This document shows positions 2,559 through 48,788 of a DNA stretch of 64,000 nt, one piece after another; position 1 is the stretch's first letter, and the number at the start of each line of letters is the position of its first letter. Location: assembly GCA_042570605.1 (NCBI GenBank), contig JBHPGK010000001.1, forward strand, positions 8,644 through 72,643. Reading direction: 5' to 3'. The DNA comes from Candidatus Zhuqueibacterota bacterium. Lineage in GTDB: Bacteria > SM23-31 > JBHPGK01. Made by a program: the position numbers and the translations under genes. A model generated the notes under the pieces. That model saw only the letters and a list, made by a program, of their open reading frames with translations, searched no databases and had not been told where the DNA came from.

Positions 2559-2579
2559 TCTATCTACCGGATTCCTTTT

Positions 2580-26412: not shown

Positions 26413-26440
26413 ATTATTTTATTGTTTTTAGAGTGTTATC

Positions 26441-27283: not shown

Positions 27284-27295
27284 ATTTTTTAAATT

Positions 27296-28135: not shown

Positions 28136-28173
28136 GAGAGTCTCCTTTTAAGGATCATTTTTGAAAACAATTT

Positions 28174-29848: not shown

Positions 29849-29888
29849 GCTTCAAAAATCGGTTTTATCATTATCAAACAAAAGAGAA

Positions 29889-30767: not shown

Positions 30768-31372
30768 CCGGGTTAATTACGAAAAATAAGCCCTTCTAAT
30801 AATATAGACGAAAAAAAATTCAAAAGGTAAATATTATTTTTTATTTTTGTAATTGGTTTAGAGCGAACAGAACTGTCCGGTAAAAACAAAAATTTATTTT
30901 TACTATCATTGCGAAGCGTCCCGATCCCGCTAAGCGGGAGGGACATCGAAGCAATCTCACTGTTCGGAGAAACTGACGATAAGATTCTTCTCCCCCAAGT
31001 TCTCGGGGGAATATAGGATGGGCGTGGCTATTAATTACAGATTCTCAATCAACAGACTGTGTGAAAACGGTATAAAAATAAGTACAAACGTATCATGAAG
31101 GAGTTCCATCCCAAGAGTTGAGATAGGGATGACTGAAACAATCTCATAATATATTTAATAATAATACCTCAGCGGTGAGATTGCTTCGTTGCTACGCGCC
31201 TCGCTATGACAGTAAAAATATTAAAATTATATAAAATCCTGCATTTTCACACAGTCTGCAACTCGGGAATAACAGTATTTGACGCAATATCAAGTAAAAA
31301 CTGGTTTTCCAAAGAATAAATTGGGAAATTGGCCTAAATTTGTTAAATTGAATCTTTAAATTTTGAGGAGAT

Positions 31373-31807: not shown

Positions 31808-34444
31808 TTAAAACCAGGCTTTTAATGTAACGATCCTTTTATTGGGAACATAAAGATTTACAGAATTACCTTTATTTATACTTAATTCTTCAATTTTATC
31901 TTCTTTAAGATCGACATTCTCAATTTTTTTCAGGTCTTTGTAAAATGTGATCTTCCCTTTGAGTTTCCTGTTCGATATATTGTAAAACCTGACAATAAGA
32001 GCTTCATCATTTTCAGCTCTTTTAATTGTGCTTACAACCAGTTCCTCAGGTTCAACTCTGACAAAACTCAGGTCCAGCGGCAGTTCACCATCAGACTTGT
32101 CAATGTTCTTGGTTATGATAGGCGAACAGGACTGAAAAGCCAGCTGATAGCTTTTCGATTCGAACAGGTCACCGTCATGAGGAATTATTGAATAATGAAA
32201 ATGATAATCGCCAAGACACTGAGCTTCCGGTGTGGGGATAGCGGGTCCCGCATGTCCTTTCCTTGTCATAAGGTCGTCCCTTGAAAGCCATCCGACTGAC
32301 CGCAGGAGTGTGATCATAATTGCGTGTTTGTTCTTATGGGGGACCATCTCATATTCTCTTAATCCTCTTGCAGCAACACATAAACCGAATTTCCCGTTAT
32401 TGATATCCACGAACTTGTGAAAATTCTTTGTCGGCGAGGGGGACTCCGCCCAGTCTTTTTTTACGGGGATGTCAATGTCCCTTTCAAGTACGGTAAAATG
32501 ACCCCCGGCAAATGCTTTCTGGACAGAAACATTAGCGGGGAAAGAAACCCTTATCCTGTGATCTTTTGCCTTGTTCGCAACCTCGGTACGGATATCTATT
32601 TTCCGGGATTCGGATTTCAGTGATATATATGAGGTAACCGGGCATATGACAATTTTGTTGCTTCTGGATTTCCTGTCCATCGATAGTGACGCAGGTATTG
32701 CAAGCTCTGAAGTTACTTTGAAGATCGCCTCAAGCTGATTAAACGACTGCAGACGCATTTTCACATTGCTCAGATTCGAGTAAAATTTAATCGAATTTTT
32801 TATTGGAGAATAATTATATTCATCACCGGCATCTTCTGAATCTTCAAACAGATTTAATCCTTCAAAGATTTTACCTGTTTTCTTATCGAGAATACTTAAT
32901 GAACCGTCCTTTTTTATTCTCAGGGAAAGAAATTTGTTTTCTGCTCCGTCTGATATTAGCTTAAGGTCGGTTTCAAGTGCTTCGGGTTCTCCTTCAAAAA
33001 TATCGAATACCCGGTAACCGCAGGGCGGAATATTTTTTGCCTTTAAAATAATGTCATCTTCTACAACATCCTCAAAATAATTCAGATCGACAACCGTCCG
33101 TTTATCTGATTTCAATTTCAGGTATTCCACCTCGTTCCCTTCGGAGTCAACGATCCTGTATACAAATTCGTTATCCGGTTTTGTTCTTTTAAATCGCACT
33201 TTCGCTCTTAACACATCCGTTATTTCCCAGTTATGCGGATTAAAAATAACAAACGGATCACCTTTCAGAGAAGATGTATTAATACCTTTTCCAAGATCAC
33301 TTATCGAATTCCTGAGCAGCCTGTTGGCGATCTGCAGGGACTGCTGAAATCTCGGCTGCATTTCCCTGTGGATCTGGTCAATGCCGCAGCCGCATATATC
33401 ATCATGAGGATGATTTTTCAAAAGCGTTTTCCATCCTTTTATCAGGAAATCATACGGGTATTCAGAACCGTTAACCCATGCAAACGCAGATATCGGTTCT
33501 ACATATTTCTCATACGTATTTTCTATTTTATCATTAAAAAGTTTCAAATAAACTCGGGTTGAATATACTCCCTGCAGAATAGAAGTGTTTTTACCGTAAG
33601 TTAACTCACCTGAAATCGATTCCAGGATCGGATCATCGGATATAACGGTTTCCTGGTATTCTTCAATTGATCCGTGTATAACTGTCATATCATTAAATTT
33701 CTTATTCGCCTTTTTAATGATCTCCGGGAGCTCCGGCTGCGGGAACTGGTGGTCAAATCCGTTATAAATGATCACATTGTTTGTGCGCAGGTGGGGGCTC
33801 AACTCATCCACTTCCTCTCTTATCTGTTTTAAAGCTTTATCAAAACTGAAATCAGCGGGATCAACATTTGAGAAAACTTTTCCATAGCCGAGGTTCGCCC
33901 CGTTCACATAGTGCCTGAACTGGTATAGTGCAAGTATTTCTGTACCGTCCGGGGTTTTCCAGACAAATTCAGTTCCCAACTGCTCGGCTTCATCACCCAT
34001 TCCTCTGGAAAAAACGACAGTAGGAAGGCCAAATCCCTTTAATATCTGGGGAAGCTGTTCAATATGACCGAATGAATCCGGAATATACCCGGCATTCAGG
34101 GGTTCACCAAATTCTTTTGAAACTTTGCGCCCTATCAGAAGGTTTCTTAACAGCGCCTCACCGCTTACAATAAATTCATCTGCCAAAACATACCAGGGGC
34201 CTATAAAGATCCTCTTCTTTTCTACAAGCTCTTTCAGTTTTTCCTTCATATAGGGTTTTACAGCGAGGTAATCCTCGAGTAAAATTGTCTGACCATCAAG
34301 CATAAAAGACTTGTATTCCGGATCCTTCTCGAGTATATCGACAAGGTAATCGATCATTTCGACAAGTTTCATCCTGTAATCCTGAAAAGGAAGATACCAA
34401 GCCCTGTCCCAATGAGTATGGGGGACAATAAAGACCTTTAACAT
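31808..34444 (-). CDS. Glycoside hydrolase family 38 alpha-mannosidase.
   Basis: It has the GH38 N-terminal signature VPHTHWDRAWY, and its 878 aa length is consistent. Confidence 0.8.
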   Translation of the reverse strand: MLKVFIVPHTHWDRAWYLPFQDYRMKLVEMIDYLVDILEKDPEYKSFMLDGQTILLEDYLAVKPYMKEKLKELVEKKRIFIGPWYVLADEFIVSGEALLRNLLIGRKVSKEFGEPLNAGYIPDSFGHIEQLPQILKGFGLPTVVFSRGMGDEAEQLGTEFVWKTPDGTEILALYQFRHYVNGANLGYGKVFSNVDPADFSFDKALKQIREEVDELSPHLRTNNVIIYNGFDHQFPQPELPEIIKKANKKFNDMTVIHGSIEEYQETVISDDPILESISGELTYGKNTSILQGVYSTRVYLKLFNDKIENTYEKYVEPISAFAWVNGSEYPYDFLIKGWKTLLKNHPHDDICGCGIDQIHREMQPRFQQSLQIANRLLRNSISDLGKGINTSSLKGDPFVIFNPHNWEITDVLRAKVRFKRTKPDNEFVYRIVDSEGNEVEYLKLKSDKRTVVDLNYFEDVVEDDIILKAKNIPPCGYRVFDIFEGEPEALETDLKLISDGAENKFLSLRIKKDGSLSILDKKTGKIFEGLNLFEDSEDAGDEYNYSPIKNSIKFYSNLSNVKMRLQSFNQLEAIFKVTSELAIPASLSMDRKSRSNKIVICPVTSYISLKSESRKIDIRTEVANKAKDHRIRVSFPANVSVQKAFAGGHFTVLERDIDIPVKKDWAESPSPTKNFHKFVDINNGKFGLCVAARGLREYEMVPHKNKHAIMITLLRSVGWLSRDDLMTRKGHAGPAIPTPEAQCLGDYHFHYSIIPHDGDLFESKSYQLAFQSCSPIITKNIDKSDGELPLDLSFVRVEPEELVVSTIKRAENDEALIVRFYNISNRKLKGKITFYKDLKKIENVDLKEDKIEELSINKGNSVNLYVPNKRIVTLKAWF

Positions 34445-35679
34445 AATTGGAATCTCCTATTACATAATAAAATAAAATTAGCTCACAAACGAGAGTTCTA
34501 GCACATATAAAATTATAAACTTCAGGAGAATCAAGTTAGTAGTAGTTACCATAAGAAAGTTAAAAAAAATATTTTCCGTTGTCAAATGATTTTATTTTAA
34601 ATTTTTTCTTTTTTTTACACTTGTGTCCGGCAATTATTAAATAGGGATTTTTCTCCAGGTAAACCGGTACTGGAATAACACAGAAGTTGAGGTCCTTAAC
34701 GTCATTCTGAACGCAGTGAAGAATCTCACTGCAAACAGCTTCGAACAGTAGGATTGCGTACTCGTCGCGCAAAAGGTAGTGACTTCCCCGAGCAATCTCA
34801 CCGATAAGGTATTGTCATTAATTTAGTTATGAGATTACTTCAGCCATTCCGACACATCGAGACTCCTTCGTAATAACACCTCTGTACATGTTTTTTACAG
34901 TTTTTTCACAAAGGGACTACTTCGTAGCACAAAGTGATCACTTCGTGATAGGATCTCATAAATAGAAGAGAAGATTCCGATCCCGAACATTCTGGACGGA
35001 ATGACAGTTCTGCACTTTAATCGCTTTGAAAAACGAGTTGGGAAACACGCCCGCAGGCTGGAATGACGGATAAGTACTTCTTTTTAACATTAACAAGAAT
35101 GTTCCATCCTGAGAACACGGATAAATGGTCTTAAAATACATCAAGAAATAAAGGTAGAACAAGTATCTACTCTATCAAAAATTGGAATAATTAAAAAATT
35201 GAAAAGGTTCAGTATGGAAAGAAAAATTTGGACAACCCCCAAAATTTACATGGTTATAAGGTATATCTTATTGATAATGTAAATACTTATGGGAAATATA
35301 GACATGAAAAATAATTGAAGCGAAGATGTCATTATCCGCCAGAGGTGGATCCCGCCATCTGCGGGACGAGGAGCGAAGCGACGTAGTAATCTGCCGGGAT
35401 TTTAGGATTTGTCTTTGTGGTAGTAGATTGCTTCTCCCGGTAAACCGGGATCGCAATGACATTTATGCCGTGGCAGGAGATTCTCCCCAGCACTCGGGTC
35501 CCCGGAATTACAGCCATTATTAAAAAATGGGGGTAGTCCAATAAGGAAATAAAAATATCTTGATTAAATGATATTTTTATGTTAATATTAAATTTTAAAA
35601 TCAGCATATCTAACTACATGAATATTAATAAGTTATAACCCAAACGCATAATACAGGTACAATTTCCCCGGAGGGATTA

Positions 35680-36729
35680 ATGTCTGAAAAAATGAAAGCA
35701 GTTGCAAAAACGAAAAGTTCACCCGGAGCAGAACTAATTGAAACGGCTATTCCGGAGGTCAGAGAGGATGAAGTCCTTGTTAAAGTTAAGGCAACATCGA
35801 TTTGCGGCAGTGATGTCCATATTTATAATTGGGACAATTGGGCTCAAAGCAGGGTCAAAACTTTTCCCAGAATAATGGGGCATGAATTCGCAGGTGAAGT
35901 TGTTGAAGTGGGAAATAATGTAAAAAAGATCAAGGCGGGAGATCTCATATCTGCAGAAACCCATATCCCCTGCCAGAGCTGTATTCAGTGCCTGACAGGA
36001 CAGATGCATATCTGCGGAAACCTGAAAATACTGAGCCTCGACACCAACGGATGTTTTGCCGAATATGCTGTCGTTCCGGAGATCGTCTGCTGGGTAAATG
36101 ACAAAAGCATCCCATTTGAATTCGCAAGTGTTCAGGAACCTTTGGGAAATGCAGTTTACTGCTCACTTGTGGAACCGGTTACCGGAAAAACTGTCCTGAT
36201 TATGGGAGACGGACCCACCTCCCTTTTTGCAGCGGGTGTCTGTAAAGTGGCAGGAGCATCACAGGTTTACGTCGTAGGTTTAAGCCCTTACAGGCTGGAG
36301 ATCGCAAAAAAAATGGGTGCAGACCTTGTACTGAATAATAAAACAGACAATACTGTTGAAATAATACTGGACAAAACTGACGGCGTTGGTGTAGATGTTG
36401 TACTCGAAATGGCAGGTGCACAGGAAACAATCACACAGGGATTTCAACTGGTCAGGAAAGGAGGCAGATTTTCAGCATTCGGTATTGCTGCAAAACCTGT
36501 TGAACTCGATATAAATAATGCAGTAATTTTTAAGGGGGTTACCGTTTATGGTATCAACGGGCGGCTAATGTTTGATACCTGGTTCAAAGTAAGAAATCTT
36601 CTTGCTTCAAAAAAGCTGGATATCTCGCCCGTTGTCACCCATAAGCTCAAACTGGAGGACTTCGAAAAGGGATTTGACCTTATGCGGACTTTTCCTCAGA
36701 AATGCGGTAAGGTCGTCTTGTTCCCTTAG
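35680..36729 (+). CDS. tdh: L-threonine 3-dehydrogenase.
   Basis: It is a Zn-ADH fold with ICGSDVHIYNWDNW and GHEFAGEVVEVG. It is close to E. coli Tdh throughout and has a GGAGG SD. Confidence 0.9.
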   Translation: MSEKMKAVAKTKSSPGAELIETAIPEVREDEVLVKVKATSICGSDVHIYNWDNWAQSRVKTFPRIMGHEFAGEVVEVGNNVKKIKAGDLISAETHIPCQSCIQCLTGQMHICGNLKILSLDTNGCFAEYAVVPEIVCWVNDKSIPFEFASVQEPLGNAVYCSLVEPVTGKTVLIMGDGPTSLFAAGVCKVAGASQVYVVGLSPYRLEIAKKMGADLVLNNKTDNTVEIILDKTDGVGVDVVLEMAGAQETITQGFQLVRKGGRFSAFGIAAKPVELDINNAVIFKGVTVYGINGRLMFDTWFKVRNLLASKKLDISPVVTHKLKLEDFEKGFDLMRTFPQKCGKVVLFP

Positions 36730-36765
36730 GGTAAACAGAACATCATAAAAAACGGGGGGAATCTC

Positions 36766-37974
36766 ATGTACGGTAAATTTAAAAGGTTTCTTTTAACTGA
36801 ATTGGAAACTATTAAAAATGCCGGTTTATACAAAGAAGAAAGGGTATTAACTTCTCAGCAGGGTGTCCAGATTGAAACCGACAAAGGATTAAAAGTCTTA
36901 AATTTTTGTGCTAATAATTATCTTGGTCTTTCAACTGATCCAAGAGTCATTTCTGCCGCTGAAAAAGTCTGCAAAAAATGGGGCTATGGTTTATCATCTG
37001 TAAGATTCATTTGCGGTACTCAACAGGTTCATAAGGAATTAGAAAAAAAATTGAGCGAATTCCTGAGTACAGAAGACACTTTATTATATTCCTCATGTTA
37101 CGATGCAAACGGCGGAGTATTTGAACCGCTGCTTAATGAAGATTGTGCAATAATCTCAGACGAACTTAATCATGCTTCAATTATCGATGGCGTCAGGTTA
37201 TGCAAAGCAAAACGTTTCAGGTATAAAAACAATAACATGAGCGACCTTGAAGACAAGATCAAGGAAGCGGCGGATTCAAAATATAAGATCATTGCGACTG
37301 ACGGTGTATTCTCTATGGACGGCATTATTGCTAAAGTAGATGAAATTTGTGACCTTGCAGATAAATACGACGCAATGGTCCTGGTCGATGACTCCCATGC
37401 TACAGGTTTTATAGGACAATCGGGAAGAGGAAGCCATGAACACTGCGGAGCCGTAGGAAGAGTGGATATAATTACCACAACTTTCGGCAAAGCCCTGGGA
37501 GGAGCATCCGGGGGATGCGTATCCGGAAGAAAAGAAATAATTGAATATTTAAGACAGAAATCCCGGCCTTATCTCTTTTCAAATTCTCTCGCCCCGATTA
37601 TCGCCGGTACAACCCTGGAAGTACTCGATATGCTCTCAAATACCACAGAATTAAGAGACAAACTTGAGGAAAACACAAAATATTTCAGAAAAGGCATTGA
37701 AGACTCCGGTTTTAAGATCGTGCCGGGTAATCACCCCATTGTCCCTATATTATTCGGTCATCTGCCGGACGATGCAAAACTCGCTCGTGATTTTGCCGGT
37801 GAAATGTTGAAAGAAGGTATTTATGTTATTGGATTTTCCTATCCTGTGGTGCCTAAAGGGAAGTCCAGAATCAGAGTTCAGATCAGTGCAATGCATACAA
37901 AAGAGCATATTGACTTTGCAATTGATAAATTTATTAAAACAGGAAACAAATTTGATATTTGGAATAGGAATTGA
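36766..37974 (+). CDS. kbl: Glycine C-acetyltransferase (2-amino-3-ketobutyrate CoA ligase).
   Basis: NFCANNYLGL, SVRFICGTQ, ATDGVFSMDG and TFGKALGG (PLP Lys) are present. It matches E. coli Kbl closely across its length. Confidence 0.9.
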   Translation: MYGKFKRFLLTELETIKNAGLYKEERVLTSQQGVQIETDKGLKVLNFCANNYLGLSTDPRVISAAEKVCKKWGYGLSSVRFICGTQQVHKELEKKLSEFLSTEDTLLYSSCYDANGGVFEPLLNEDCAIISDELNHASIIDGVRLCKAKRFRYKNNNMSDLEDKIKEAADSKYKIIATDGVFSMDGIIAKVDEICDLADKYDAMVLVDDSHATGFIGQSGRGSHEHCGAVGRVDIITTTFGKALGGASGGCVSGRKEIIEYLRQKSRPYLFSNSLAPIIAGTTLEVLDMLSNTTELRDKLEENTKYFRKGIEDSGFKIVPGNHPIVPILFGHLPDDAKLARDFAGEMLKEGIYVIGFSYPVVPKGKSRIRVQISAMHTKEHIDFAIDKFIKTGNKFDIWNRN

Positions 37975-38344
37975 TATAATAGAAATAGACAGGATTTCAC
38001 GCGAACTCTCAAAAGACAACGGTTTCAAAGAAAAAATATATACTTCACTGGAAATCGAGACCGGAGAATCCTTTGACAATCCGGCAAAGTACTTCGCCGG
38101 ATGTTTTAGTGCAAAAGAAGCTTTTTTCAAGGCACTGGGTACCGGATGGCGCTATGGAATGACATTTAAAGAGATAGAGACATTCCAGGAAAATGAAAAA
38201 ACATTAAGCCTGAGGGTATCCGGAAAAGCAAAAGATTTTATTAACAATAATCTGATAAAAAAGACATGTATCACTCTGGCAATTACAGATAAATTTGCTG
38301 CCGCCCTGGTTGTTTTGGAGCTTGAGGATACAGAAGACCGCTGA
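37952..38344 (+). CDS. acpS: Holo-[acyl-carrier-protein] synthase (4'-phosphopantetheinyl transferase).
   Basis: GIGIDIIEIDRI...FSAKEAFFKALGTG matches AcpS. The track ORF begins inside kbl, so the real start is probably the TTG/ATA region near 37952. Confidence 0.65.
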   Translation: MIFGIGIDIIEIDRISRELSKDNGFKEKIYTSLEIETGESFDNPAKYFAGCFSAKEAFFKALGTGWRYGMTFKEIETFQENEKTLSLRVSGKAKDFINNNLIKKTCITLAITDKFAAALVVLELEDTEDR

Positions 38345-38506
38345 CATTCATTTTTTCCCTTCACTTCGAAAATCTTCATTAAGTGATAAAAATCACAATA
38401 TTTGTTAATATTTTCACAATATTTCTTGTTATAAAAAGTATTTTTTTTTAACTTACTATCCTTTTTCATTAATCAAACCCGGAGTAGAATAAACAGGGAG
38501 AAGCAA

Positions 38507-40213
38507 ATGTCAAATATCGGTTCATATGATGAAATAATTAAGGATTTTAAATGGTCAATATCGGAGAGTGAACTTGGTTACAATAATGGTGACGTTATAA
38601 ATATCGGCTGGTATTGTTCCGACAGAGTATGTAAAATGGGAAAATCTGAAAAAACTGCGCTGATCTGGGAAGGACACGGAGGGATTGAAAAAAGTTACAC
38701 TTTTAATGATGTCAGGCTTGCCAGTAATACAATTGGCGATTTTCTAAGAAACACCGGTGTAAAAGAAGAAGACCGGGTCTGCCTGTTTATGGACAGGATA
38801 CCTGAGCTTTACCTGGGATTTTTAGGTATTTTAAAGATCGGAGCCATTGCACAGCCTCTGTTTTCTGCATTTGGAGATGAATCACTATTCGTCAGGCTGG
38901 AAAATGCGCAAACGAGGGCAATTATTACCCAGAGAAAGCATGTTTCAAAGGTCAGAAAAATCATAGACAGGCTGCCTTTTCTCGAATATATCATTATCGT
39001 GGATCATGACGGAAAAAAGCTGCTACAGGAAAGGGAAATAACATTCTCCCTTGCCGAGGCTGAACCTGTCGAAGACCTGGAAATTTATCCTGCAAAGGCA
39101 GAGTCGCCGTCAGTTCTTCATTATACATCCGGTACCACCGGACAGCCTAAAGGAGTACAGAATGTCCATTATTCACTAATTTCACAATATCTTACCACAA
39201 AATGGGTCCTGGACCTGAGGGATGAGGACATATACTGGTGTACTGCCGACCCGGGATGGGTAACAGGGACCTCTTACGGTATAATCGGTCCATGGAGCAT
39301 GGGTATCACACAATGTGTTCTCGATGCCGGTTTTTCTGCGGATACATGGTATAAATTTATTGAAAAAAACAGGATAACCGTATGGTATTCAGCACCTACC
39401 GCGATCCGGTCGTTGATGAAAGCAGGTGAAGAAATTGTCAGACAGTATGATCTGTCTTCTCTGAGGCATCTTGCAAGTGTAGGAGAACCTCTTAATGCCG
39501 AAGCTGTCGTCTGGTCGGAAAAAGTGTTCAACAGACCATTTCTGGACACTTACTGGCAGACCGAAACAGGCTCGATCATGCTCACGAATTTCCCGGGTAT
39601 GAAGGTAAAACCCGGTTCCATGGGGAAATCATTTCCCGGTATCACTGCCGCAGTTCTTGATCCGGAAACTTTTGAACCTATCACCGAACCCGGAAGAATT
39701 GGTTTAATAGGATTTAAACCTGGGTGGCCTGCGATGATGAGAGGTTACTGGAACAATGAAGAAACTTACAGAAAAAAATTCGAGAATGGCTGGTATATCC
39801 CTGGTGACAGGTCAAGTATAGATAATGAGGGTTATTTCTGGTTCTCAGGCAGAGATGATGATGTTATAAATACCGGAGGACACCTTGTGAGTCCATTTGA
39901 AGTGGAATCTGCACTGCTTGAACATGAAGCTGTTGCCGAGTCGGCTGTTGTAGCCAAACCTGATGAAGTTAATATGGAAGTTGTAAAAGCCTTTGTTACT
40001 TTAAAACCGGGTTTTGAGGCAAATGCAGACCTCGAATTAAAGATTATGAACTTTATTCGAAAGAAGCTTTCTCCACTGGCAATGCCTCAGGAAATCGAAT
40101 ATGTCGATTCCCTTCCTAAAACAAGGAGCGGAAAAATAATGAGGAGACTGCTTAGGGCGAAGGAATGGGGAGAAGAAACTGGAGATACTTCCACACTCGA
40201 GGATGATGAATAG
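38507..40213 (+). CDS. Acs-family (acetyl/propionyl-CoA synthetase-like) AMP-forming ligase.
   Basis: YTSGTTGQPKGV, YWQTETG and a C-terminal LPKTRSGKIMRRLLR are present. These are hallmarks of the acetyl-CoA synthetase subfamily rather than long-chain FadD. Confidence 0.8.
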   Translation: MSNIGSYDEIIKDFKWSISESELGYNNGDVINIGWYCSDRVCKMGKSEKTALIWEGHGGIEKSYTFNDVRLASNTIGDFLRNTGVKEEDRVCLFMDRIPELYLGFLGILKIGAIAQPLFSAFGDESLFVRLENAQTRAIITQRKHVSKVRKIIDRLPFLEYIIIVDHDGKKLLQEREITFSLAEAEPVEDLEIYPAKAESPSVLHYTSGTTGQPKGVQNVHYSLISQYLTTKWVLDLRDEDIYWCTADPGWVTGTSYGIIGPWSMGITQCVLDAGFSADTWYKFIEKNRITVWYSAPTAIRSLMKAGEEIVRQYDLSSLRHLASVGEPLNAEAVVWSEKVFNRPFLDTYWQTETGSIMLTNFPGMKVKPGSMGKSFPGITAAVLDPETFEPITEPGRIGLIGFKPGWPAMMRGYWNNEETYRKKFENGWYIPGDRSSIDNEGYFWFSGRDDDVINTGGHLVSPFEVESALLEHEAVAESAVVAKPDEVNMEVVKAFVTLKPGFEANADLELKIMNFIRKKLSPLAMPQEIEYVDSLPKTRSGKIMRRLLRAKEWGEETGDTSTLEDDE

Positions 40214-40306
40214 AAGAAGGAAGGCTGAGGCTAAGACTAAGGCTGAGAAAATACCCGGAATATTAAATGAAAAATATATATAACTGTTTAATAAAGGAGA
40301 CATAAA

Positions 40307-40555
40307 ATGGACGATATGAAGGATGTAGTATTAGAATATGTAATAGAAGAATACGTAGAAGATGAAGATGAGGAAATCACTTATGACTCTCCCCTTATAT
40401 CAGGAGGAATTGTTGATTCATTCTCGATGGTCTCTCTGAAAAGATTCCTGGAAAATAAATACAGCATCTCGATACCGGATGAAAAGGCAACCCCGGAAGC
40501 TTTTGATACGGTGAACAGTATTGTTTTGCTGGTAAATGAATTTTTAAATAAATAG
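40307..40555 (+). CDS. Small acidic carrier protein (DltC/aminoacyl-carrier-like ACP, 82 aa).
   Basis: GGIVDSFSMVSLKRFLE resembles the DltC GIIDSFQTVGLL phosphopantetheine-attachment site. It has an acidic N-terminus. Confidence 0.6.
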   Translation: MDDMKDVVLEYVIEEYVEDEDEEITYDSPLISGGIVDSFSMVSLKRFLENKYSISIPDEKATPEAFDTVNSIVLLVNEFLNK

Positions 40556-40639
40556 TAAAGATAATCAACCCGGATACCATAAAAAAACGAATTAAAGATA
40601 TATACTAAATTTAAATTCAATTCATTCAGGAGATAAATT

Positions 40640-41887
40640 ATGAGTTTTAGTGAGAAAACAAGATCGATATACCGGGAACAACTGGAGGGCATAAAAAAAG
40701 CCGGGATTTTTAAGGTTGAAAGATTTATACATTCCGAACAGGCAGCCGACATTGAAGTTGAATTTCCTTCCGGTTCAAATTTAAAAAAAGTGATCAATAT
40801 GTGTGCCAACAATTATCTGGGTCTTTCCAGCCACCCGGAAGTTATTAAAGCGGCTCATGAAGGTCTGGATAAACGCGGTTACGGAATGTCTTCGGTCCGC
40901 TTTATATGCGGAACACAGGATATTCATAATGAGCTGGAATCAAAAATGACGGAGTTTTTGGGTACGGAAGCTACCATTCTCTTTCCTTCCTGTATGGATG
41001 CAAATGCCGGTGTATTTGAAGCGATCCTGACAAACGAGGATGTAATAATATCCGACCGTCTTGTACATGCTTCACTGGTCGACGGCATCAGGCTGTGCAG
41101 CGCCGCACATGACACAATTAAACACTCGAACATGGATCATTTAGAGAAAAAGCTCCAGCTTCATGCGGATAAACGGCTGAAGCTAGTGGTTACCGATGGT
41201 GTATTCTCAATGGACGGGGATACTGCAAAACTGGATGAGATGGTAGACCTGTGCAAAAAGTATGATGCAATGCTGCTTGTTGATGATTCCCATGCAACCG
41301 GATTCATAGGTAAAACAGGACGAGGCGTTCACGAAAAATACGGTCTTTTAGGTAAGATCGATATTATTACCACGACTTTCGGTAAAGCTCTCGGCGGAGC
41401 ATCGGGAGGATGTGTTTCCGGAAGGGCGGAAATCGTTGAAATGTGCAGGCAGAAAGCAAGACCATACCTGTTTTCCAATACTATAGCTCCGGTGGTTGTA
41501 TCAGGAGTTTTAAGAGTTTTAGAAATCCTTTCGGAAACCACCGAACGCAGAGACAAACTGGAAAAGAACAGCGAATACTGGCGCAAAGGGCTGACTGAAG
41601 CCGGATTATTGATAAAAGAGGGTGACACTCCAATTGTCCCAGTAATGTTTTTTAATGCAAAACTTTCGCAGGATTTTGCTAAAGACCTTTACGAGGAAGG
41701 GATATATGCAATAGGTTTCTTTTTTCCGGTTGTGGCTCAGGGGCAGGCAAGAATAAGGACGCAGATATCGGCAGCTCATGAAATACATCATCTCGATAAA
41801 GCGCTCGACGCATTTACAAAAGTCGGTAAAAAATACGATATTTTAGGAAAAACCAAACAGGAAATTATCGGGAAATACGGAATGTAG
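40640..41887 (+). CDS. Second Kbl-type alpha-oxoamine synthase (glycine C-acyltransferase paralog).
   Basis: NMCANNYLGL, SVRFICGTQ, VTDGVFSMDG and TFGKALGG are present. It is clearly Kbl-like but diverged from the upstream kbl (for example Cys to Met in the substrate pocket region, FFFPVVAQGQARIR). Confidence 0.8.
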   Translation: MSFSEKTRSIYREQLEGIKKAGIFKVERFIHSEQAADIEVEFPSGSNLKKVINMCANNYLGLSSHPEVIKAAHEGLDKRGYGMSSVRFICGTQDIHNELESKMTEFLGTEATILFPSCMDANAGVFEAILTNEDVIISDRLVHASLVDGIRLCSAAHDTIKHSNMDHLEKKLQLHADKRLKLVVTDGVFSMDGDTAKLDEMVDLCKKYDAMLLVDDSHATGFIGKTGRGVHEKYGLLGKIDIITTTFGKALGGASGGCVSGRAEIVEMCRQKARPYLFSNTIAPVVVSGVLRVLEILSETTERRDKLEKNSEYWRKGLTEAGLLIKEGDTPIVPVMFFNAKLSQDFAKDLYEEGIYAIGFFFPVVAQGQARIRTQISAAHEIHHLDKALDAFTKVGKKYDILGKTKQEIIGKYGM

Positions 41888-42087
41888 AAATTTAGTCTAC
41901 CGGACGAAATTAACTACAGATAAAAAAAATACTGGTAAAATGAAAAAATGTTTTTTATATTATTAACAGCCTAATGTAATGTCATATGGCAGGGGGTATG
42001 TTTGATAGGGAGAAAGGACCGGTAATTTAACCGGTCTTTTTTCATTTTAGACGCAAAAGTAGAAAAGTATTTGTAAGAAAGCGCACA

Positions 42088-42118
42088 TTACTCAATGTCC
42101 GCTTTTTTGTATAATTAT
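42088..42118. terminator. Terminator-like hairpin plus T6, a variant of the GGACATTG..CAATGTCC repeat.
   Basis: gcgcacattactcaatgtccgctttttt is present. Confidence 0.35.
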
Positions 42119-42230
42119 TTCAACATACATTTCTTATTATTTTAAATACATATGCGAGGGCATTAATGCCCTCTCTTAATGCCGGAAGGTGCTTAAAACC
42201 ACCTTATAATAAAAGTCTTAAATACTAATA

Positions 42231-42260
42231 GAGAGGACATTGAGCAATGTCCTCTTTTTG
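42231..42260. terminator. Terminator-like hairpin plus T5, a copy of the repeat at 7198-7228.
   Basis: gagaggacattgagcaatgtcctcttttt is near-identical to the 7198 copy. Confidence 0.4.
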
Positions 42261-42339
42261 TAAATCAATAATTTCCAAACGCAGATAGACTATCCGTCAC
42301 AAAGTGATCACTTTGTGAAAAAACAATAAAAACTAAACG

Positions 42340-42620
42340 AATTGATGTCATTCCCGCAGAAGTGCGTGTTGCTCAACTCTTTTTTTGAAAGAGATAAGAG
42401 TCCGGAATTGTCATTTCAAACGTAGTGAGAAATCTAAACAAGCCTTTCTTAGACCCTGAACCAAGTTCAGGGTGACAGGCTTGGAGTTGAGCCACACACA
42501 CGGAAGCGGGAATATCATGGAGTTTTTACTTCGTGGGGGTAGATTGCTTTCCTGGTAAACCGGGATCAGGACTTGCCTCGCAATGACACTATTGAGCGTG
42601 TCATTCCCGACTCCGATCCA
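42340..42620. repeat. Composite repeat region containing MITE-like nested palindromes and a GTAGATTGCTTYCCYGGTAAACCGGGATC module.
   Basis: It holds a cctgaaccaagttcagggtgaca copy, a gtgcgtgttgctcaactc / gagttgagccacac inverted repeat, and a module shared with 35419-35466 and 44823-44930. Confidence 0.55.
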
Positions 42621-42736
42621 CGCCGGAGGCGGACACGCGGGAATCTCCTACCATAAAAACAAATGTATCTAAGTTTTCACTAAGTGATCACTTAGTGTCA
42701 AACAGTCTCAGGGCAGCAGCACAATATATACATACA

Positions 42737-44413
42737 TCACTTCAACAATACAAGCTTCTTCGACCGTATAAAATCCACCGCTTTAAACCTGTATATGTAA
42801 ACACCGCTGGAGACCGGAAAACCTGAATTATTTGTGCCATCCCAAAACACAGAATGAGGGCCAGCATAATTGAATTGATTGTTCAAAAGCGTTTTTATTT
42901 CTTGACCGAGGATATTGTATATTTTAAGGATTACTTCAGTTTCTTTTTTTAATTCGAACTTTATCTTAGTCCCAGAATTAAAAGGATTTGGGTAATTCTG
43001 ATATAGGATATGTTCGTCAGGCACATTATAATCAACAATAGTCACCCATCGTCTCTTTGAACTTTCGTAATATTTACCGTCTGTATCTTCAAGGTAATTT
43101 ACAACAGTGTAAACATATTTCTTACCTTTTTCAACATCCGTATCTAAAAATTCAATAATGCTTGAATTAATTTCTTCTTTTGGTATAGTGTCAAGAAGGG
43201 TAATATTATCTATATATCTTAAATAGTCTTCAGTATATTCAGTTTTGTAAATTTTATATCCTGAAAAACCTGACCTTTCTGTAAACGGATTAATATAATT
43301 TATTTCATTAACATTCCATGTCAGTTCGATACCGCTGCTTCTCTTATTGTAAGTTACTTCAGGAGAGGCAAGAATGGGCGATTTCCACCCGCTTCTGTAA
43401 GTCCTCCTCGCCCATTTAAAGTTTTCAACCATGTTGTCCAAACCTTCCCCCACTCCAAAAGCGAATACAATTTTAGCTGTATCTCCAGGTGCGATATTAT
43501 AAGGCCCCCAACCGATATAAATATAACCAACTATAGTAGGTGAAGTTGAACCTTGCATGTAGGTAGAAATATTATTCTCCATTTTTTGAATAATTTCCGC
43601 GTAATCGCTATCGTAAATATTTTGATAACCCCAAAAATAATAAGCCGGTGTATGCTCAGGATATTTTTCATATTCTGTAGCAGGAGAATAAATTGAACAA
43701 GTACCAAAATAACCGGGACATTCTCCGTTTGGACCTCCCGCATCATCAGGTGAATAGTCAGGACTATCTCCATCGTAGGCATAAGCTATATAAATTTTTT
43801 CATCAGGAATAAACCCTGCATCATTACCTATGAATAAGTCTGTATGGTCATCCTTATAAAACCGTTTTACTTCTGGTTGTTCGACAGGTGAGATATCAAC
43901 ACAAAATTTTCTGTGCAGACAAAGTCCTTTTACCGTATCTATTCCTTCATTAATTAGAATGTATTCGAAAATAATAAAATCGTTCCTGAATTCTTCGGAA
44001 AATCCATAAGTATTAAATAATCCTCGTATAAAAGGTCTATCATTATATTGTTCTGTGTTTCTGTCAAAAAAGTCTGTTCTTGTATCAAGGTCTGATACTG
44101 CTGTTTTATCATCTATCACAGATTTAATATTTAAAGTGTATTCAGGCATAAATTGATTTAAGATAACATGTCTATATTCATTATTATCAATATAATAAAT
44201 TCGGGTATCAGCATAACTGGAATATATAGAATTGTTGTTGTATTTGGGATAATATATAAAGGCACCCCAATCACCATTATATAGACCAAAATCCCATAAA
44301 TAGACCTCAAAACTGCCTACATCATAATGAAATTGATTATTTTGAGAGTTTGACGGAACTGAACATACAAAAAGACTGATTAACACTACAATTTTTAAAA
44401 GATGTCTTTTCAT
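42737..44413 (-). CDS. Secreted protein with a T9SS C-terminal sorting domain (function unknown).
   Basis: There is a signal peptide. The C-terminus YQNYPNPFNSGTKIKFELKKETEVILKIYNILGQEIKTLL...GVYIYRFKA is a canonical T9SS type-A CTD. Confidence 0.65.
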   Translation of the reverse strand: MKRHLLKIVVLISLFVCSVPSNSQNNQFHYDVGSFEVYLWDFGLYNGDWGAFIYYPKYNNNSIYSSYADTRIYYIDNNEYRHVILNQFMPEYTLNIKSVIDDKTAVSDLDTRTDFFDRNTEQYNDRPFIRGLFNTYGFSEEFRNDFIIFEYILINEGIDTVKGLCLHRKFCVDISPVEQPEVKRFYKDDHTDLFIGNDAGFIPDEKIYIAYAYDGDSPDYSPDDAGGPNGECPGYFGTCSIYSPATEYEKYPEHTPAYYFWGYQNIYDSDYAEIIQKMENNISTYMQGSTSPTIVGYIYIGWGPYNIAPGDTAKIVFAFGVGEGLDNMVENFKWARRTYRSGWKSPILASPEVTYNKRSSGIELTWNVNEINYINPFTERSGFSGYKIYKTEYTEDYLRYIDNITLLDTIPKEEINSSIIEFLDTDVEKGKKYVYTVVNYLEDTDGKYYESSKRRWVTIVDYNVPDEHILYQNYPNPFNSGTKIKFELKKETEVILKIYNILGQEIKTLLNNQFNYAGPHSVFWDGTNNSGFPVSSGVYIYRFKAVDFIRSKKLVLLK

Positions 44414-44935
44414 TTTAGTATTATTAGTTAAATAGGTTTGAATATTTGATATAAATTTTACCCCATGTTTTTTATATCGGTTTTTCCTTAATAGGGAGAT
44501 TTATATATTAATGACGACTCAATCAAAGTAAAAGTAACAATTATTATAAATTTTTTGTTATTTGTGTAGACTTATCTCGAAAAGTATAGTTTATATCAGG
44601 CTTATTCAGAACTTTATTAATGACTCCATAATAGTAAATCTCATAATCTAATTCAAGTTATTTTCTGCTTCGTCATTCCAGCGAAGGTGTGTGTGGCTTA
44701 ACTCTTTTGTATAATAGAAATAAAAACACTGCGTGTCATTCGCGGTGCTATGGAACATCCTACACCTATACCCAGGGACAGGCTTTCTCCCCCCTGAGTA
44801 CTCGGGGAAATCTCATGAATTATGTACTTCGTGGGGGTAGATTGCTTTCCCGGTAAACCGGGACAGGCTGTTAGTTCCTGATCCCGGTAAACCGGGATCA
44901 GGACTTGCCTCGTAATGACAGTTCTGGCTCTGCCT

Positions 44936-44972
44936 TCTTCAAAAAAGAAAAAGTCATGGAATTTTCCATGAC
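44936..44972 (-). terminator. Rho-independent terminator of the MacB/HlyD operon.
   Basis: It is a perfect hairpin gtcatggaa-ttt-tccatgac followed on the minus strand by TTTTTCTTTTTT. Confidence 0.6.
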
Positions 44973-44985
44973 CTTCCTTATGAAT

Positions 44986-45022
44986 TTTAATTATTAATTA
45001 TTAATTATTAATTATTAATTTT
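44986..45022. repeat. (ATTAATT)n microsatellite.
   Basis: ttaattattaattattaattattaatt lies immediately 3' of the permease stop codon. Confidence 0.7.
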
Positions 45023-46261
45023 CTATTCATATCGTAGTGCATCAACACAGTCAATGCTTGCAGCACGGCGGGCTGGGAATGTGCCGAATATAATACCCAC
45101 AGCAGCGGATACTACAAATGCCACGAAAACCGATAACGGAGTGATCTTGGTAGTAAACTCAGCAAAACTGCTGACTATTAATGACATTGTTATTCCGAGT
45201 ATTACTCCAATAATCCCGCCAACAAGGCTGAGCCCGATAGACTCCAGTAAAAACTGGGTCATGATCTCTTTTTTCCTTGCACCTACAGCACGGCGGATAC
45301 CGATCTCGCGTGTACGTTCCAGAACGGTCGCCAGCATGATATTCATAATACCGATACCGCCCACAAGCAGTGAAATAGCGGCAATCGAACTTAAAACGAG
45401 GTTGTATATCCGTCTTTCCTTTTCCTCCTGTTTGAGCAGCTCATACGGAATAACAATATCAAAATCATCGTTATTATAATGGCGGCGGCTTACAATCCGG
45501 CGGATCACCGCGGCACTTTCAACAAGTTCATCAGAGTTCCGAATCTTTACAGTTAACTGGTCGATCTGGCTTGAGAGCTTTTCCTTTTTTTCGAATCTTC
45601 TTAAGATAGAGGATAGCGGGATATAAATATCCTGGTTTAAATTACGTGCAGCCAATTCACCTACAGTTTCTGTGAAAAGCGCTTTCGAACCCATTATGCC
45701 GATCACCTCAAACCACTGGTCATCGATCTTTACTTTTTTACCAAGCGGGTCCTCCACAGGGAAAAGCGTACTTGCTACCTCAGCGCCAAGTATGCAGACG
45801 CGGAGTTCCCTGTTATAATGGTCCTCAGATAAAAAAGTACCGGTCTTAGGTTCAATATTCAGTATCTCCTGAAATGCGGGTGTTACACCTACAAGATTAA
45901 CCTTGGAAGATTTATCCTCATATTTTGCTTCGACTTCAAGCTCAGATTGCGGAGCGACTTTTTCAATTGTCGGGACAATGTTTTTAATAGATTCAGCATC
46001 GGACAATGAAAGTCCCTGGGAGAATTTTGCACGGATTTCCTCAAGCTCTTTATCACTTAATTTTTTATCCCGAATGATAATATTATTTACACCAAGCGCT
46101 TTAAATTTTTCAAGTGCTTCTCGTTTAGCTCCTTCTCCGATTGCGAGCATTGCAATAACAGCAGCAACACCGAAAATGATACCGAGCATGGTTAAAACCG
46201 AGCGGAGCTTATGGACTTTCAGTCCTTCTATGCCAATCAGAAGATTCTCTTTAACATTCAT
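45023..46261 (-). CDS. MacB-type ABC transporter permease (MacB periplasmic core plus FtsX domain), with no fused ATPase.
   Basis: It has an N-terminal TM, a large periplasmic domain and three C-terminal TMs with the FtsX-like IGIMNIMLATVLERTREIGIRRAVGA motif. It is 412 aa. Confidence 0.8.
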   Translation of the reverse strand: MNVKENLLIGIEGLKVHKLRSVLTMLGIIFGVAAVIAMLAIGEGAKREALEKFKALGVNNIIIRDKKLSDKELEEIRAKFSQGLSLSDAESIKNIVPTIEKVAPQSELEVEAKYEDKSSKVNLVGVTPAFQEILNIEPKTGTFLSEDHYNRELRVCILGAEVASTLFPVEDPLGKKVKIDDQWFEVIGIMGSKALFTETVGELAARNLNQDIYIPLSSILRRFEKKEKLSSQIDQLTVKIRNSDELVESAAVIRRIVSRRHYNNDDFDIVIPYELLKQEEKERRIYNLVLSSIAAISLLVGGIGIMNIMLATVLERTREIGIRRAVGARKKEIMTQFLLESIGLSLVGGIIGVILGITMSLIVSSFAEFTTKITPLSVFVAFVVSAAVGIIFGTFPARRAASIDCVDALRYE

Positions 46262-47463
46262 TAAATTTCTCCCAGTCCGTTCTTTAATAAAATTTTGTCG
46301 CCCGGATTCAGGTTCCCTTTTACCATTGCTTCTTTGCTGTTTTTCGGGCCGACGGTTACCTTAGTCTTTTTCGGTCCATTCCCATTCTCAACATAGACAA
46401 AATACTCTCCTCCCTCCTGCCGGATGCAATTACTATTGACGAAAAGAGTATCTTTAAATTCTGCAATCACAAATTCGCAGCTTACAGTCATACCCGGTTT
46501 TAATATCTTGTCAACATCATCAAGCAGAACCACTAAATCAAAAACTTTGATCTTTGACTGCCTGTCCTTTTTACGGGATATATTGCTGACACTGATAATC
46601 GAACCGGTAAACGCTTTTTTTGGAAATGCATCTAACCTTACATAAGCTTTCTGCCCGACATGCACTTTCCCGATATCCATCTCACTGACAGTCGCTATGA
46701 CCTTCATCTGACTCATGTCTGGCAATAAAATTATGCCGTCTCCCCACCATACCTGGTCTCCAACAGCAACTTTTCTTCTGCCGCTCCCGCTCCATATTTG
46801 ACCATATTCGATCATCCCGTTTGCCGGAGCCCTCAGCGTATATGCATCGATAGCCTTTTTTGCCTGCTCGATATCCGATTTTATCTGAGAGAGCTTCAGT
46901 TCATTTATCAGCCTATCCTCATTATGCATTATTTTTGTTTTTTCTATCTTTTTAATTGTCCTGTTATAATTGATTTCAGCTATTTGAAGACTTACTTTTG
47001 AAATTTCTCTTTTGGTCGGAGATTCAAATTTGTCCTTTTCAGCCCGCAGTTTTACCGATCTCAGATCCGCTTCACTTGATTTTAATGACGCATTTAACTC
47101 TTTTAATTCGTTCTGCTGAGAGGTTTTAAGCTTATTGAATTCGGATTCCGCAATTGCCAGTTCACGTTTTTTGCCCTCCAACCTCTGCATTACTTTTGAA
47201 TTGTCAAGTTCTCCTATAACATCCCCTTTTTTGACATATGTGCCTTCAGCTGCAAGTTCAACAACTTTCGGCTGTTCAAAAAAACCTCTTATCATCGGTG
47301 CTGAGACCGACTTGGAATTAACTGCCCTTAATTCCCCTGTTTCAGTTATTGTGGAATAAAACCTGCCCTGCTGAACCAGGACAAAATGATTATTTCCTGA
47401 AGAACCGCCGCAGGCAAAACAGATCAGGAATAATAACTGAAAATAAAATATATATCTTTTCAT
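46261..47463 (-). CDS. HlyD-family periplasmic adaptor (membrane fusion protein), copy 1.
   Basis: There is a signal or lipobox (FACGGS), a long coiled coil, and beta-barrel/lipoyl-like motifs. Its start overlaps the permease stop. Confidence 0.75.
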   Translation of the reverse strand: MKRYIFYFQLLFLICFACGGSSGNNHFVLVQQGRFYSTITETGELRAVNSKSVSAPMIRGFFEQPKVVELAAEGTYVKKGDVIGELDNSKVMQRLEGKKRELAIAESEFNKLKTSQQNELKELNASLKSSEADLRSVKLRAEKDKFESPTKREISKVSLQIAEINYNRTIKKIEKTKIMHNEDRLINELKLSQIKSDIEQAKKAIDAYTLRAPANGMIEYGQIWSGSGRRKVAVGDQVWWGDGIILLPDMSQMKVIATVSEMDIGKVHVGQKAYVRLDAFPKKAFTGSIISVSNISRKKDRQSKIKVFDLVVLLDDVDKILKPGMTVSCEFVIAEFKDTLFVNSNCIRQEGGEYFVYVENGNGPKKTKVTVGPKNSKEAMVKGNLNPGDKILLKNGLGEI

Positions 47464-47492
47464 ATTTACCCTTCAATTAAACCTTAAATTTT

Positions 47493-48707
47493 CTAAAATG
47501 ACATTTCTGTCGGATCAACCAGTGCCACAGCATCACCTTCAACCAATCCCTCAACAATTATTACAAAATTATCATTTTCCTCACCCAATTTTACTTTACG
47601 CGGCTCAAATCCGCTTCCATTTTTCAGGTAGACTATGTTCTCACCGTCTTTTTTGAAAAGAGCATCAAGCGGAATACTTATAGTCTCGAGGATATTATTT
47701 ACGATGATCTCACAGCTTACAGTCATTCCCGGAATCAGTTTTTCATCATTGCCATCCATTAGAGCAATTATATCAAATACTTTTACTTTCGACTCCCTGT
47801 CTTTGAGCCTCGCAAGTGTGGCAATATCTGTTACATGACCGCTGTAGCTCGAATCGGGATACGCATCAAGTTTAACGATTACTTTCTGGTCCATTCCCAT
47901 TTTGGCGATATCCACTTCGTTGATAGGGACTTTAACTCTCATCAGGCTCAGATCCGGTAATCCAACCAGAGGATACCCGGGCCAGGTCTGATCGTTAACT
48001 GTAAATTTTTCCCCTGTTCTCCAGTTCTTTTCAACTATGGCAATCCCGGGATTGGGTGCTTTAACAGTAAGCATTTCCATAGTTAACTTAGCTTCATCCA
48101 GCTTATTCTGGGCTTGCAGCACCTTTAGATCAAGTGTATTGATTTCCTCTTTCTGAATACTCTTTTTATTCTCTATTTCCTGCTGCGCTTTATCAAGATT
48201 AATTGTTGCCTTTTCCAGATCAAGTTCTATTCTTTTTCTCTCAACTTCAGCATCATACTTTTTCAATTTCAGATTTAATTCGGAAATCTTGTGATTCAAG
48301 TTTGCAATTGCGAGATTAGTAACGAGTTCGTCCAATTGAGATTCATGGTTCGCTTTTGTTTTCCTGAGCTCGGATTTTGCAATTTCCAGTTCAGCTTCAG
48401 CATCTGATATGGTTTTCAACACATCGGATTTATCAAACTCCATCAAAACTTCATCCTTTTCCACCTGTTTTCCGTCTTCCACCATTTTCGTAATCTTCAG
48501 ATTAGATACTATATGCCATGGAATCGGGGGAGCGAATATCATTTTAGAGTTTACTGCCTCCAGTTCGCCTGTTTCTGTAACACTGATAATAAAATTACTC
48601 TTTTTGACAGTATAACAGTCAATTTCTTCATTTAAACTATGTTTACACGCAGAGACCAATATCATAAAAAGCAATAAAATTACAATTACCGGAGAATTCT
48701 TTGGCAT
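47493..48707 (-). CDS. HlyD-family periplasmic adaptor, copy 2.
   Basis: It has coiled-coil and MFP motifs. The likely start is the internal Met in MPKNSPVIV, so the track ORF start at 48770 is probably over-extended. Confidence 0.7.
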   Translation of the reverse strand: MPKNSPVIVILLLFMILVSACKHSLNEEIDCYTVKKSNFIISVTETGELEAVNSKMIFAPPIPWHIVSNLKITKMVEDGKQVEKDEVLMEFDKSDVLKTISDAEAELEIAKSELRKTKANHESQLDELVTNLAIANLNHKISELNLKLKKYDAEVERKRIELDLEKATINLDKAQQEIENKKSIQKEEINTLDLKVLQAQNKLDEAKLTMEMLTVKAPNPGIAIVEKNWRTGEKFTVNDQTWPGYPLVGLPDLSLMRVKVPINEVDIAKMGMDQKVIVKLDAYPDSSYSGHVTDIATLARLKDRESKVKVFDIIALMDGNDEKLIPGMTVSCEIIVNNILETISIPLDALFKKDGENIVYLKNGSGFEPRKVKLGEENDNFVIIVEGLVEGDAVALVDPTEMSF

Positions 48708-48788
48708 AATGCGCTCCTTTATATGGATTTTAAATTTAAATTTGTTCTTTATATATTTTTTCATATACATTTATGTATAAATACACTC

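Follow-up and report, generated by a model that had tools for sequence, protein, structure and literature searches.

Do related repeats on both sides of a gene cluster mean that the cluster moves as a unit? The question is raised by a 64-kb window (the whole stretch of DNA analysed here; G+C content 37.7%) from a metagenome-assembled genome (MAG) of candidate division KSB1. Three long non-coding gaps, at 34445-35679 (block 1, 1235 bp), 41888-42736 (block 2, 849 bp) and 44414-45022 (block 3, 609 bp), lie around a cluster running from tdh to a second Kbl-type gene (tdh..kbl2) and around a gene for a type IX secretion system (T9SS) cargo protein (42737-44413). An earlier interpretation of the letters alone (hereafter the sequence-only reading) had called these gaps unusually long, which they are, with no credible open reading frames (ORFs) and no tRNA found in any of the three, and had seen in their repeats the mark of cassettes mobilised or rearranged by repeat-mediated recombination. 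We consider it probable that the blocks are instead arrays of dispersed, lineage-specific small hairpin repeats of the KSB1 genome, similar to repetitive extragenic palindromes (REP) or to neisserial intergenic mosaic elements (NIME). The family is confined to intergenic DNA and takes up the neutral central part of most of the long gaps, while the promoter- and terminator-proximal flanks stay conserved, and the arrays turn over between close relatives by insertion and deletion, reordering and module inversion, with the neighbouring genes remaining syntenic. On this view, repeats stand on both sides of tdh..kbl2 and of the T9SS gene because these genes border long, tolerant intergenic regions, and not because of cassette mobility. 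Repeat counts given below are counts within the window; coordinates of the features are collected in Table 1.

The blocks do share modules. Module M1 (GTAGATTGCTT..CCGGTAAACCGGGA..GCAATGACA) has three copies in blocks 1-3, all on the plus strand and far above chance (35411-35461, 42522-42592 and 44820-44924), and the last was rightly described as duplicated, its CCCGGTAAACCGGGA hairpin being repeated internally (34 nt). The 22-nt palindrome TCACAAAGTGATCACTTTGTGA likewise has three copies (34927-34948, 42297-42318 and 42677-42698), where chance predicts 0.00; the second copy had been placed about 9 nt off, at 42306-42327. It forms the core of each 35-nt arm of composite 42287-42708, which encloses element B, an M1 module and unit 42600-42648, and each M1 module carries the half-site CTTYGTG of this palindrome as its 5' flank. 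A larger composite, which we call the alpha-frame, consists of a dRS3-like stem and 18-nt inner arms around other hairpins (complete copies A, 10379-10546, and B, 42346-42516). A self-BLAST of the window confirmed the homologies between blocks, such as 42347-42570 against 44672-44867 (226 nt, 66% identity), and added others to further gaps: it ties blocks 1-3 to 6968-7667, 10217-10786 and 30768-31372, aligns 10379-10546 with 42346-42513 (168 nt, 73% identity) and matches 10380-10490 to the reverse complement of 34950-35067.

Repeats do bracket the cluster and the T9SS gene, but they are not particular to these segments. The same modules were found at seven other places (7196-7481, 10379-10598, 12122-12204, 30898-31212, 57938-58040, 58928-59017 and 62777-62866), and the genes beside these other repeat-bearing gaps are unrelated (a CBM protein, an M1 peptidase, a GWxTD protein, GNATs, a TetR/HlyD efflux operon and a PALP enzyme). 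Of the 17 gaps measuring 100 bp or more, 10 contain units of the form GTCATT-stem-loop-stem-AATGAC or composites homologous to those of the blocks, and none of the 7 gaps that reach 500 bp lacks them. Array modules bounded by GTCATT..AATGAC measure 25-220 nt and occur in blocks 1-3 and at least four other gaps. The 7-mer GTCATTC/GAATGAC, singled out before as a repeat unit of the blocks, is intergenic in 14 of its 23 occurrences, with intergenic DNA making up 12.8% of the window (10.6-fold density, binomial P = 8e-8). As a negative control we used 1.29 Mb of sequence, namely 80 loci of other phyla from a Kbl2-based search of genome contigs with no close relative among them, and none of the modules was found there.

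We then compared the gaps with those of related organisms. The closest relative found is ENA sample ERZ23498365, represented by loci L084 and L085 (amino acid identity of 89% for GH38, 90% for Tdh and 93.5% for Kbl2). It keeps the GH38|tdh adjacency, positions 1-1443 of L084 corresponding to 33173-34616 and positions 1500-3224 to 35547-37266. The intervening 34617-35546, which holds every block-1 module, is replaced by 56 unrelated bp, so that only 34445-34616 and 35547-35679, the promoter-proximal flanks, are conserved in block 1. The convergent kbl2|T9SS pair is also kept (L085), with homology running from kbl2 up to 42115. The gap between the two genes (777 bp in L085) contains an alpha-frame, an M1 module, a unit like 42600-42648 and an NTS-like hairpin in an order and orientation different from those of the window. 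No variable presence of the bracketed segments is seen in the closest relative, and only more distant relatives differ. In a distant relative from JGI (Tdh 76% identical), the whole tdh..kbl2 cluster lies between a HAL-type lyase with a tRNA and an M23 peptidase, and the T9SS orthologue (46% identical) adjoins macB in inverted orientation; this genome has its own composite of about 300 bp, of GTCATTTCGA type, with one copy upstream of tdh and the other in an unrelated gap. Relatives whose MacB is 80-81% identical lack all of the modules, and in them macB is followed by other genes. Rearrangement has thus occurred at the borders of the cluster and of the T9SS gene over greater distance, with nothing tying it to the repeats, and the arrays are dynamic elements on a syntenic backbone. 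The alternative offered by the sequence-only reading, hot-spots for the insertion of miniature inverted-repeat transposable elements (MITEs), comes close to the evidence: the gaps are colonised by small hairpins whose content differs between relatives around fixed flanking genes.

Nearly every unit follows the design GTC-ATT(C/G)(C/G)...stem-loop...(G/C)(G/C)AAT-C. Most heads are GTCA, and GTAG is present in M1 (GTAGATTGC) and in a perfect palindrome at 7292-7319. A unit may stand alone, be paired with another in an inverted doublet (10443-10509, 12122-12204 and 58928-59017), lie nested in the loop of another unit (compare GACCCTGAACCAAGTTCAGGGTGAC at 42451 with GACCCTGA[ATCCCGCTTAGCGGGAT]CAGGGTGAC of L085) or serve as the outer clamp of a composite of 170-250 nt. 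Compared with shuffled sequences, the alpha-frame elements are predicted to fold strongly (z = -13.6 for A, -6.4 for B and -4.1 for C). A metagenome scan using the left-arm pattern returned two loci only, L090 and L091 in SDBU01 contigs, and these are two more complete alpha-frames with unrelated interiors. The four complete copies come from two organisms; pairing of their arms is 91% over 26 positions and 5 pairs are changed on both sides, a level of covariation reached in 0 of 500 shuffles. One arm position (alignment columns 19/54; window 10398/10531 and 42365/42498) is unpaired in 4/4 complete copies of this otherwise covarying stem. Since elements C and D keep the left arm only, E keeps the right arm only and the L085 copy has arms of two different subtypes, the alpha-frame family is a recombining mosaic. 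Palindromes of a non-GTCAT type were also seen: the perfect one at 7292-7319 (28 nt, GTAGGGAACGGTCGCGACCGTTCCCTAC) has a REP-like GTAG head, and an imperfect one of 84 nt, GTAAGGGCGAAGCATTTT...AAAATGCTTCGCCCCTAC, lies at 25450-25533.

Among known systems, the closest in layout is that of Neisseria, in which dRS3 (ATTCCCN8GGGAAT) copies flank more than 100 families of RS elements, each roughly 50-150 bp long, in arrays called NIME (PMC1797815). These arrays are syntenic yet variable between strains, adjoin more divergent genes and were reported in 2007 as unseen outside Neisseria (PMC1797815). The KSB1 arrays resemble NIME in the hairpin core and the GTCATTCC flank, which are the same as in dRS3; in the many module families that are bounded by the hairpin and cluster, RS-like, around dRS3-type units; in being GC-richer than their surroundings; in their syntenic positions with number, length and order varying between relatives (the 930-bp array is absent in L084 and L085 is reordered); and in an unusually divergent gene for a secreted or surface protein flanked on both sides. 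Positions 10579-10598 match the 20-bp dRS3 inverted repeat ATTCCCNNNNNNNNGGGAAT exactly, and GTCATTCC-N10-GGAAT with at most one mismatch gives 3 matches against 0.12 expected, next to many variants with other stems. Unlike NIME, the arrays have a KSB1 host with 38% GC, stems that vary (ATTCC, ATTGC, ATTTC, ATCC) and units that are often nested or clamp long composites; DNA uptake sequences and Correia elements are absent from them, and neither transformation nor a phage recombinase is known to be connected with them. By this comparison the KSB1 arrays appear to work like NIME without being members of them, their modules being lineage-specific and the RS set specific to the genus Neisseria not being found.

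Two other groups of repeats share part of this design. SsnA, a single-domain GIY-YIG nuclease (cd10448) whose gene is often flanked by the motif, binds and cleaves the NTS (CGTCATTCCCGCGMAVGCGGGAATCYRG) and the broader Ssn-related motif (SRM) in single-stranded form, and in 2025 SRM hairpins were linked to Ssn single-stranded DNA nucleases in several phyla (PMC11893778). Like these, nearly every KSB1 unit has an oriented 5' GTC flank (here a GTCAT head) and a semi-palindrome. The SRM pattern HGTCWYN(0-2)YYVSBRHN(0-5)WNVSBRGN(0-2)RNCYNB has one strict match in the window, at 58988-59015, which differs from the NTS consensus solely by a compensatory stem change (C-G to A-T). Unlike in the NTS/SRM system, this is the single strict match, the window and about 130 kb of KSB1 loci yielded no ssn gene, and a role in cleavage or transformation would be a prediction from sequence. 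The doublet carrying this unit is the centre of an imperfect palindrome at 58858-59083 (226 nt, 63%), whose layout resembles NTS-ssnA-NTS but has 34 nt and no gene between the hairpins. On the environmental contig SDBU01001121, GTCATTCCCGCGCAAGCGGGAATCC (L091 2821-2843) is almost exactly the Neisseria NTS consensus and stands directly beside the alpha-frame composite. With the REP/BIME elements and the REPINs associated with RAYT transposases (IS200/IS605-like Y1 enzymes with REPs flanking their genes) in E. coli and Pseudomonas, the KSB1 units have in common that they are short extragenic palindromes with a conserved head, form inverted doublets and mosaics, and sit at operon ends and between genes; their head is mostly GTCAT rather than GTAG or GTGG, their nesting is more extensive, and no RAYT gene was found among the window genes scanned. 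The alpha-frame also recalls MITEs such as Correia, RUP and ERIC in its size (170-300 nt), its terminal inverted arms of about 30 nt and its folding into a long hairpin, whereas its termini are generic dRS3-like hairpins, its interiors are unrelated between organisms and it has no known parent insertion sequence. Taken as sequence patterns, architecture and dynamics match mosaics of the NIME/BIME type.

How such units spread can be proposed by analogy. An enzyme specific for hairpins, with its gene in another part of the genome, would spread and reshuffle them in the form of single-stranded DNA hairpins. The likeliest candidate is a single-domain GIY-YIG nuclease of Ssn type, followed by an enzyme resembling RAYT or IS110. 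Further reshuffling would come from recombination and gene conversion between copies. Several observations weigh against dispersed hairpin arrays as the explanation. A clean empty site was not seen, L084 having 56 unrelated bp at the insertion or deletion, and the flanks of A, B, L090 and L091 show no consistent target-site duplication, a check that the MITE idea called for (a possible CAG/CAG was seen only at 42287-42708). The distant relatives are rearranged at exactly the borders in question, with the cluster elsewhere and the T9SS gene inverted relative to macB. A generic scan for a GTCAT head plus a stem found 10 units where shuffles gave 4.4 +/- 1.7, and the background in other phyla is 7 per 100 kb; we judged this detector too noisy as a statistic and relied instead on BLAST homology and on the enrichment of the 7-mer. 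The strict SRM pattern fits a single unit, most others having longer or nested loops. Finally, neither the window nor about 130 kb of KSB1 loci yielded a GIY-YIG, RAYT or IS110 gene, the GIY-YIG search being an ORF motif scan plus tblastn with two approximate GIY-YIG probes.

The strongest competitor is the cassette model, in which recombination between the homologous repeats would mobilise, delete or invert the tdh..kbl2 cluster and the T9SS gene, each as a unit. B and C indeed flank the T9SS gene as direct repeats with exact common words of 24-27 nt, being palindromic they also offer inverted homology, and the half elements C, D and E exist; the JGI relative with its inverted T9SS gene and relocated cluster, and the relatives with other genes after macB, fit as well, as does the T9SS protein, whose 61% identity to its orthologue, against 89-94% for GH38, Tdh and Kbl2, recalls the NIME-flanked genes of Neisseria (PMC1797815). 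We nevertheless hold this model to be unlikely. The modules are equally present in unrelated intergenic regions, both testable junctions (GH38|tdh and kbl2|T9SS) are kept in the nearest relative, the borders in distant relatives lack these modules, identity between blocks is low overall (66-73%), and a domain scan of the segment and its neighbours (31808-47463) found no integrase or recombinase domain. Fast divergence is usual for secreted proteins, and rearrangement is expected from ordinary genome flux. What the sequence-only reading had named as telling against mobility, namely modules at most intergenic sites together with synteny, is largely what we see: modules lie in most long gaps of the window beside unrelated genes and the nearest relative is syntenic, although distant relatives differ. 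Somewhat less likely again is that the arrays are functional transcribed structures (terminators, insulators, mRNA stabilisers or small RNAs) regulating their neighbours. Their strong predicted folding, covarying arms and position between convergent genes beside terminator-like hairpins would suit such a role, yet the array is wholly absent from the orthologous GH38|tdh gap of L084, the kbl2|T9SS gap is reordered in L085, units occur in both orientations, and covariation of the arms is equally expected of DNA hairpins. The whole window has no Rfam match at the gathering score, and between 34300 and 45100 even a threshold of E <= 1 gave a chance snoRNA match only.

The 22-nt palindrome could be taken for an operator, at which a dimeric transcription factor co-regulates the cluster and the T9SS gene, and its three copies against none expected and its typical length and symmetry invite this. 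We rejected the idea, which is very improbable, because the copies are modules of the repeat arrays and are missing from the relative's gaps: every copy lies inside an array and two are the cores of the 35-nt inverted composite arms, the block-1 copy belongs to the segment missing from L084 and none was seen in the orthologous L085 gap, and the half-site CTTYGTG also flanks every M1. It is scarcely credible that the repeats caused chimeric joins in a metagenome-assembled contig. Contigs of relatives do break off close to arrays (62 nt upstream of the T9SS start codon in L085, 37 nt past the macB stop in L092), but independent contigs of another sample confirm the GH38|tdh and kbl2|T9SS adjacencies, and T9SS and macB are neighbours in the JGI relative too. 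The T9SS|macB junction (44414-45022) is the one junction without independent confirmation.

Another possibility concerns the T9SS gene alone. The protein is 61% identical to its L085 orthologue, compared with 89-94% for GH38, Tdh and Kbl2, and this may reflect only the fast evolution of secreted proteins. By analogy, the array-gene-array arrangement around it might be a functional counterpart of the NTS-gene-NTS and NIME-flanked loci of Neisseria, which we regard as a long shot. Arrays read as single-stranded DNA by an Ssn-like nuclease or recombinase would then steer local recombination or allelic replacement, and the secreted protein would diversify (61% against 89-94% for its neighbours) and its gene even invert relative to macB. 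If true, a mechanism so far regarded as peculiar to Neisseria would also operate in an uncultured phylum from the environment.

If the blocks are dispersed hairpin arrays, a false lead is removed, in that tdh..kbl2 is not a repeat-bounded mobile cassette, and hairpin mosaics of dRS3/NTS type form dynamic arrays in KSB1 as well, the kind being ordinary and the host unusual. Unit 58988-59015 and the covarying alpha-frame offer concrete substrates for tests of Ssn-like enzymes in candidate phyla of the FCB group. Such arrays also call for caution, as they break metagenome assemblies and yield spurious small ORFs (e.g. 35332-35607). That ORF (minus strand) and 35326-35523 (plus strand), of 65-91 aa, are built wholly of repeat modules; the 91-aa product has no family match, and both are likely spurious gene calls produced by the repeats.

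Table 1. Repeat elements, hairpins and genes of the window discussed in the text, in order of position.
Feature	Position	Strand	Remark
Element E: right half only of the alpha-frame (GAGTTGCGCAACAGACAC..GGAATGAC)	7392-7481	+	
Element A: complete alpha-frame (168 nt, 73% identical to B) and exact dRS3-type hairpin GTCATTCCCGAGTAATCGGGAAT on the minus strand, 10576-10598	10379-10598	+	
Inverted doublet GTCATTTCGA...TCGAAATGAC	12122-12204	.	
Array: TCATTGCGAAGCG..CGAAGCAATC, module homologous to 34791-34910, GAGATTGCTTCG..CGCTATGACA	30898-31212	.	
GH38 alpha-mannosidase	31808-34444	-	
Block 1, divergent-promoter intergenic region, GH38 (-) / tdh (+)	34445-35679	.	
Window-specific repeat array, about 930 bp, with all block-1 modules inside	34617-35546	.	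Comparison with L084
Hairpin unit GTCATTCTGAACGCAGTGAAGAATCTC	34701-34727	+	Similar unit at 58005-58040
Module homologous to 31058-31185 in reverse complement (131 nt, 70%)	34791-34910	-	
Copy of the 22-nt palindrome, 2 mismatches	34927-34948	.	
Element D: half copy of the alpha-frame composite, left arm GTCATTCCAGCCTGCGGGCGTGTTTCCCAACTC present, right arm absent	34950-35067	-	
GC-rich nested hairpin unit GTCATTATCC...GTAGTAATC	35328-35395	+	Related unit: L085 1990-2065
M1 module, short form (CTTTGTGG..GTAGATTGCTT-CCCGGTAAACCGGGA-TCGCAATGACA)	35411-35461	+	
tdh	35680-36729	+	
Kbl-type oxoamine synthase, first	36766-37974	+	
AcpS-like phosphopantetheinyl transferase (PPTase)	37823-38344	+	
Acetate-CoA-ligase-like AMP enzyme	38507-40213	+	
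Carrier protein, 82 aa	40307-40555	+	
Second Kbl-type enzyme (kbl2)	40640-41887	+	
Hairpin and T-run right after kbl2, probable terminator	42019-42046	+	Gap side to 42115 conserved in L085
Two terminator-like hairpins, 42081-42107 and 42233-42259	42081-42259	.	Three-copy family, third at 7201-7227
422-bp composite between 35-nt inverted arms, 42287-42321 / 42674-42708, 83% complementary	42287-42708	.	
Element B: complete alpha-frame, outer dRS3-like stem (ATTCCCGC/GCGGGAAT), 18-nt inner arms, smaller hairpins within	42346-42516	+	
M1 module, long form	42522-42592	+	
Hairpin unit GTCATTCCCG...GCGGGAATCTCC, 67% GC	42600-42648	+	Related unit: L085 2187-2229
T9SS cargo protein	42737-44413	-	
Element C: alpha-frame with left arm only, right arm replaced	44671-44815	+	
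M1 module with internal hairpin duplication	44820-44924	+	
Terminator-like hairpin of macB	44948-44977	-	Then AT-only (TAATTA)n tract 44978-45022
macB	45023-46261	-	
HlyD-like genes, n=3	46261-50015	-	
Two units, heads inward (..CAGAATGAC / GTCATTCTGAAC..), downstream of a TetR gene	57938-58040	.	
Inverted doublet of the best NTS-like unit GTCATTCCAGCGAAGGCTGGAATCCAG, arms of 28 nt, 100% complementary	58928-59017	.	
GC-rich 90-nt unit GTCATTACGAGG...CTCAGAATGAC	62777-62866	+	

The module made up of the PPTase, the ligase-like enzyme, the 82-aa carrier protein and the Kbl-type synthase (37823-41887) was found again in MAGs of many phyla (loci L001-L080), labelled Aminicenantes, Zixibacteria, Cloacimonadota, Bacteroidales, Ignavibacteriales, Delongbacteria, Elusimicrobia, Anaerolineae and others. 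Amino acid identity across these loci is about 65-86% for the ligase, carrier protein and synthase, and only about 29-45% for the PPTase. Conservation this unusually high across phyla suggests horizontal spread or a strongly constrained pathway. The first Kbl-type gene (36766-37974) is 62% identical to the gene following tdh in L084 (2727-3227), while tdh is 90% identical, and a paralogue may have been replaced inside the cluster, judging from these identities.

Elsewhere in the window, six tandem paralogous genes of 271-292 aa on the minus strand (25597-30767) have in common a conserved 41-nt segment, CCCCCGTTTCAGGGTGG; the two that were scanned have no Pfam match. AT-only microsatellites of the TAATT/TAATTA type (44978-45022 and 21638-21699) directly follow the stops of the minus-strand genes macB and 21686-23284, and the tract after macB is absent from L092, a relative 89% identical at the nucleotide level.

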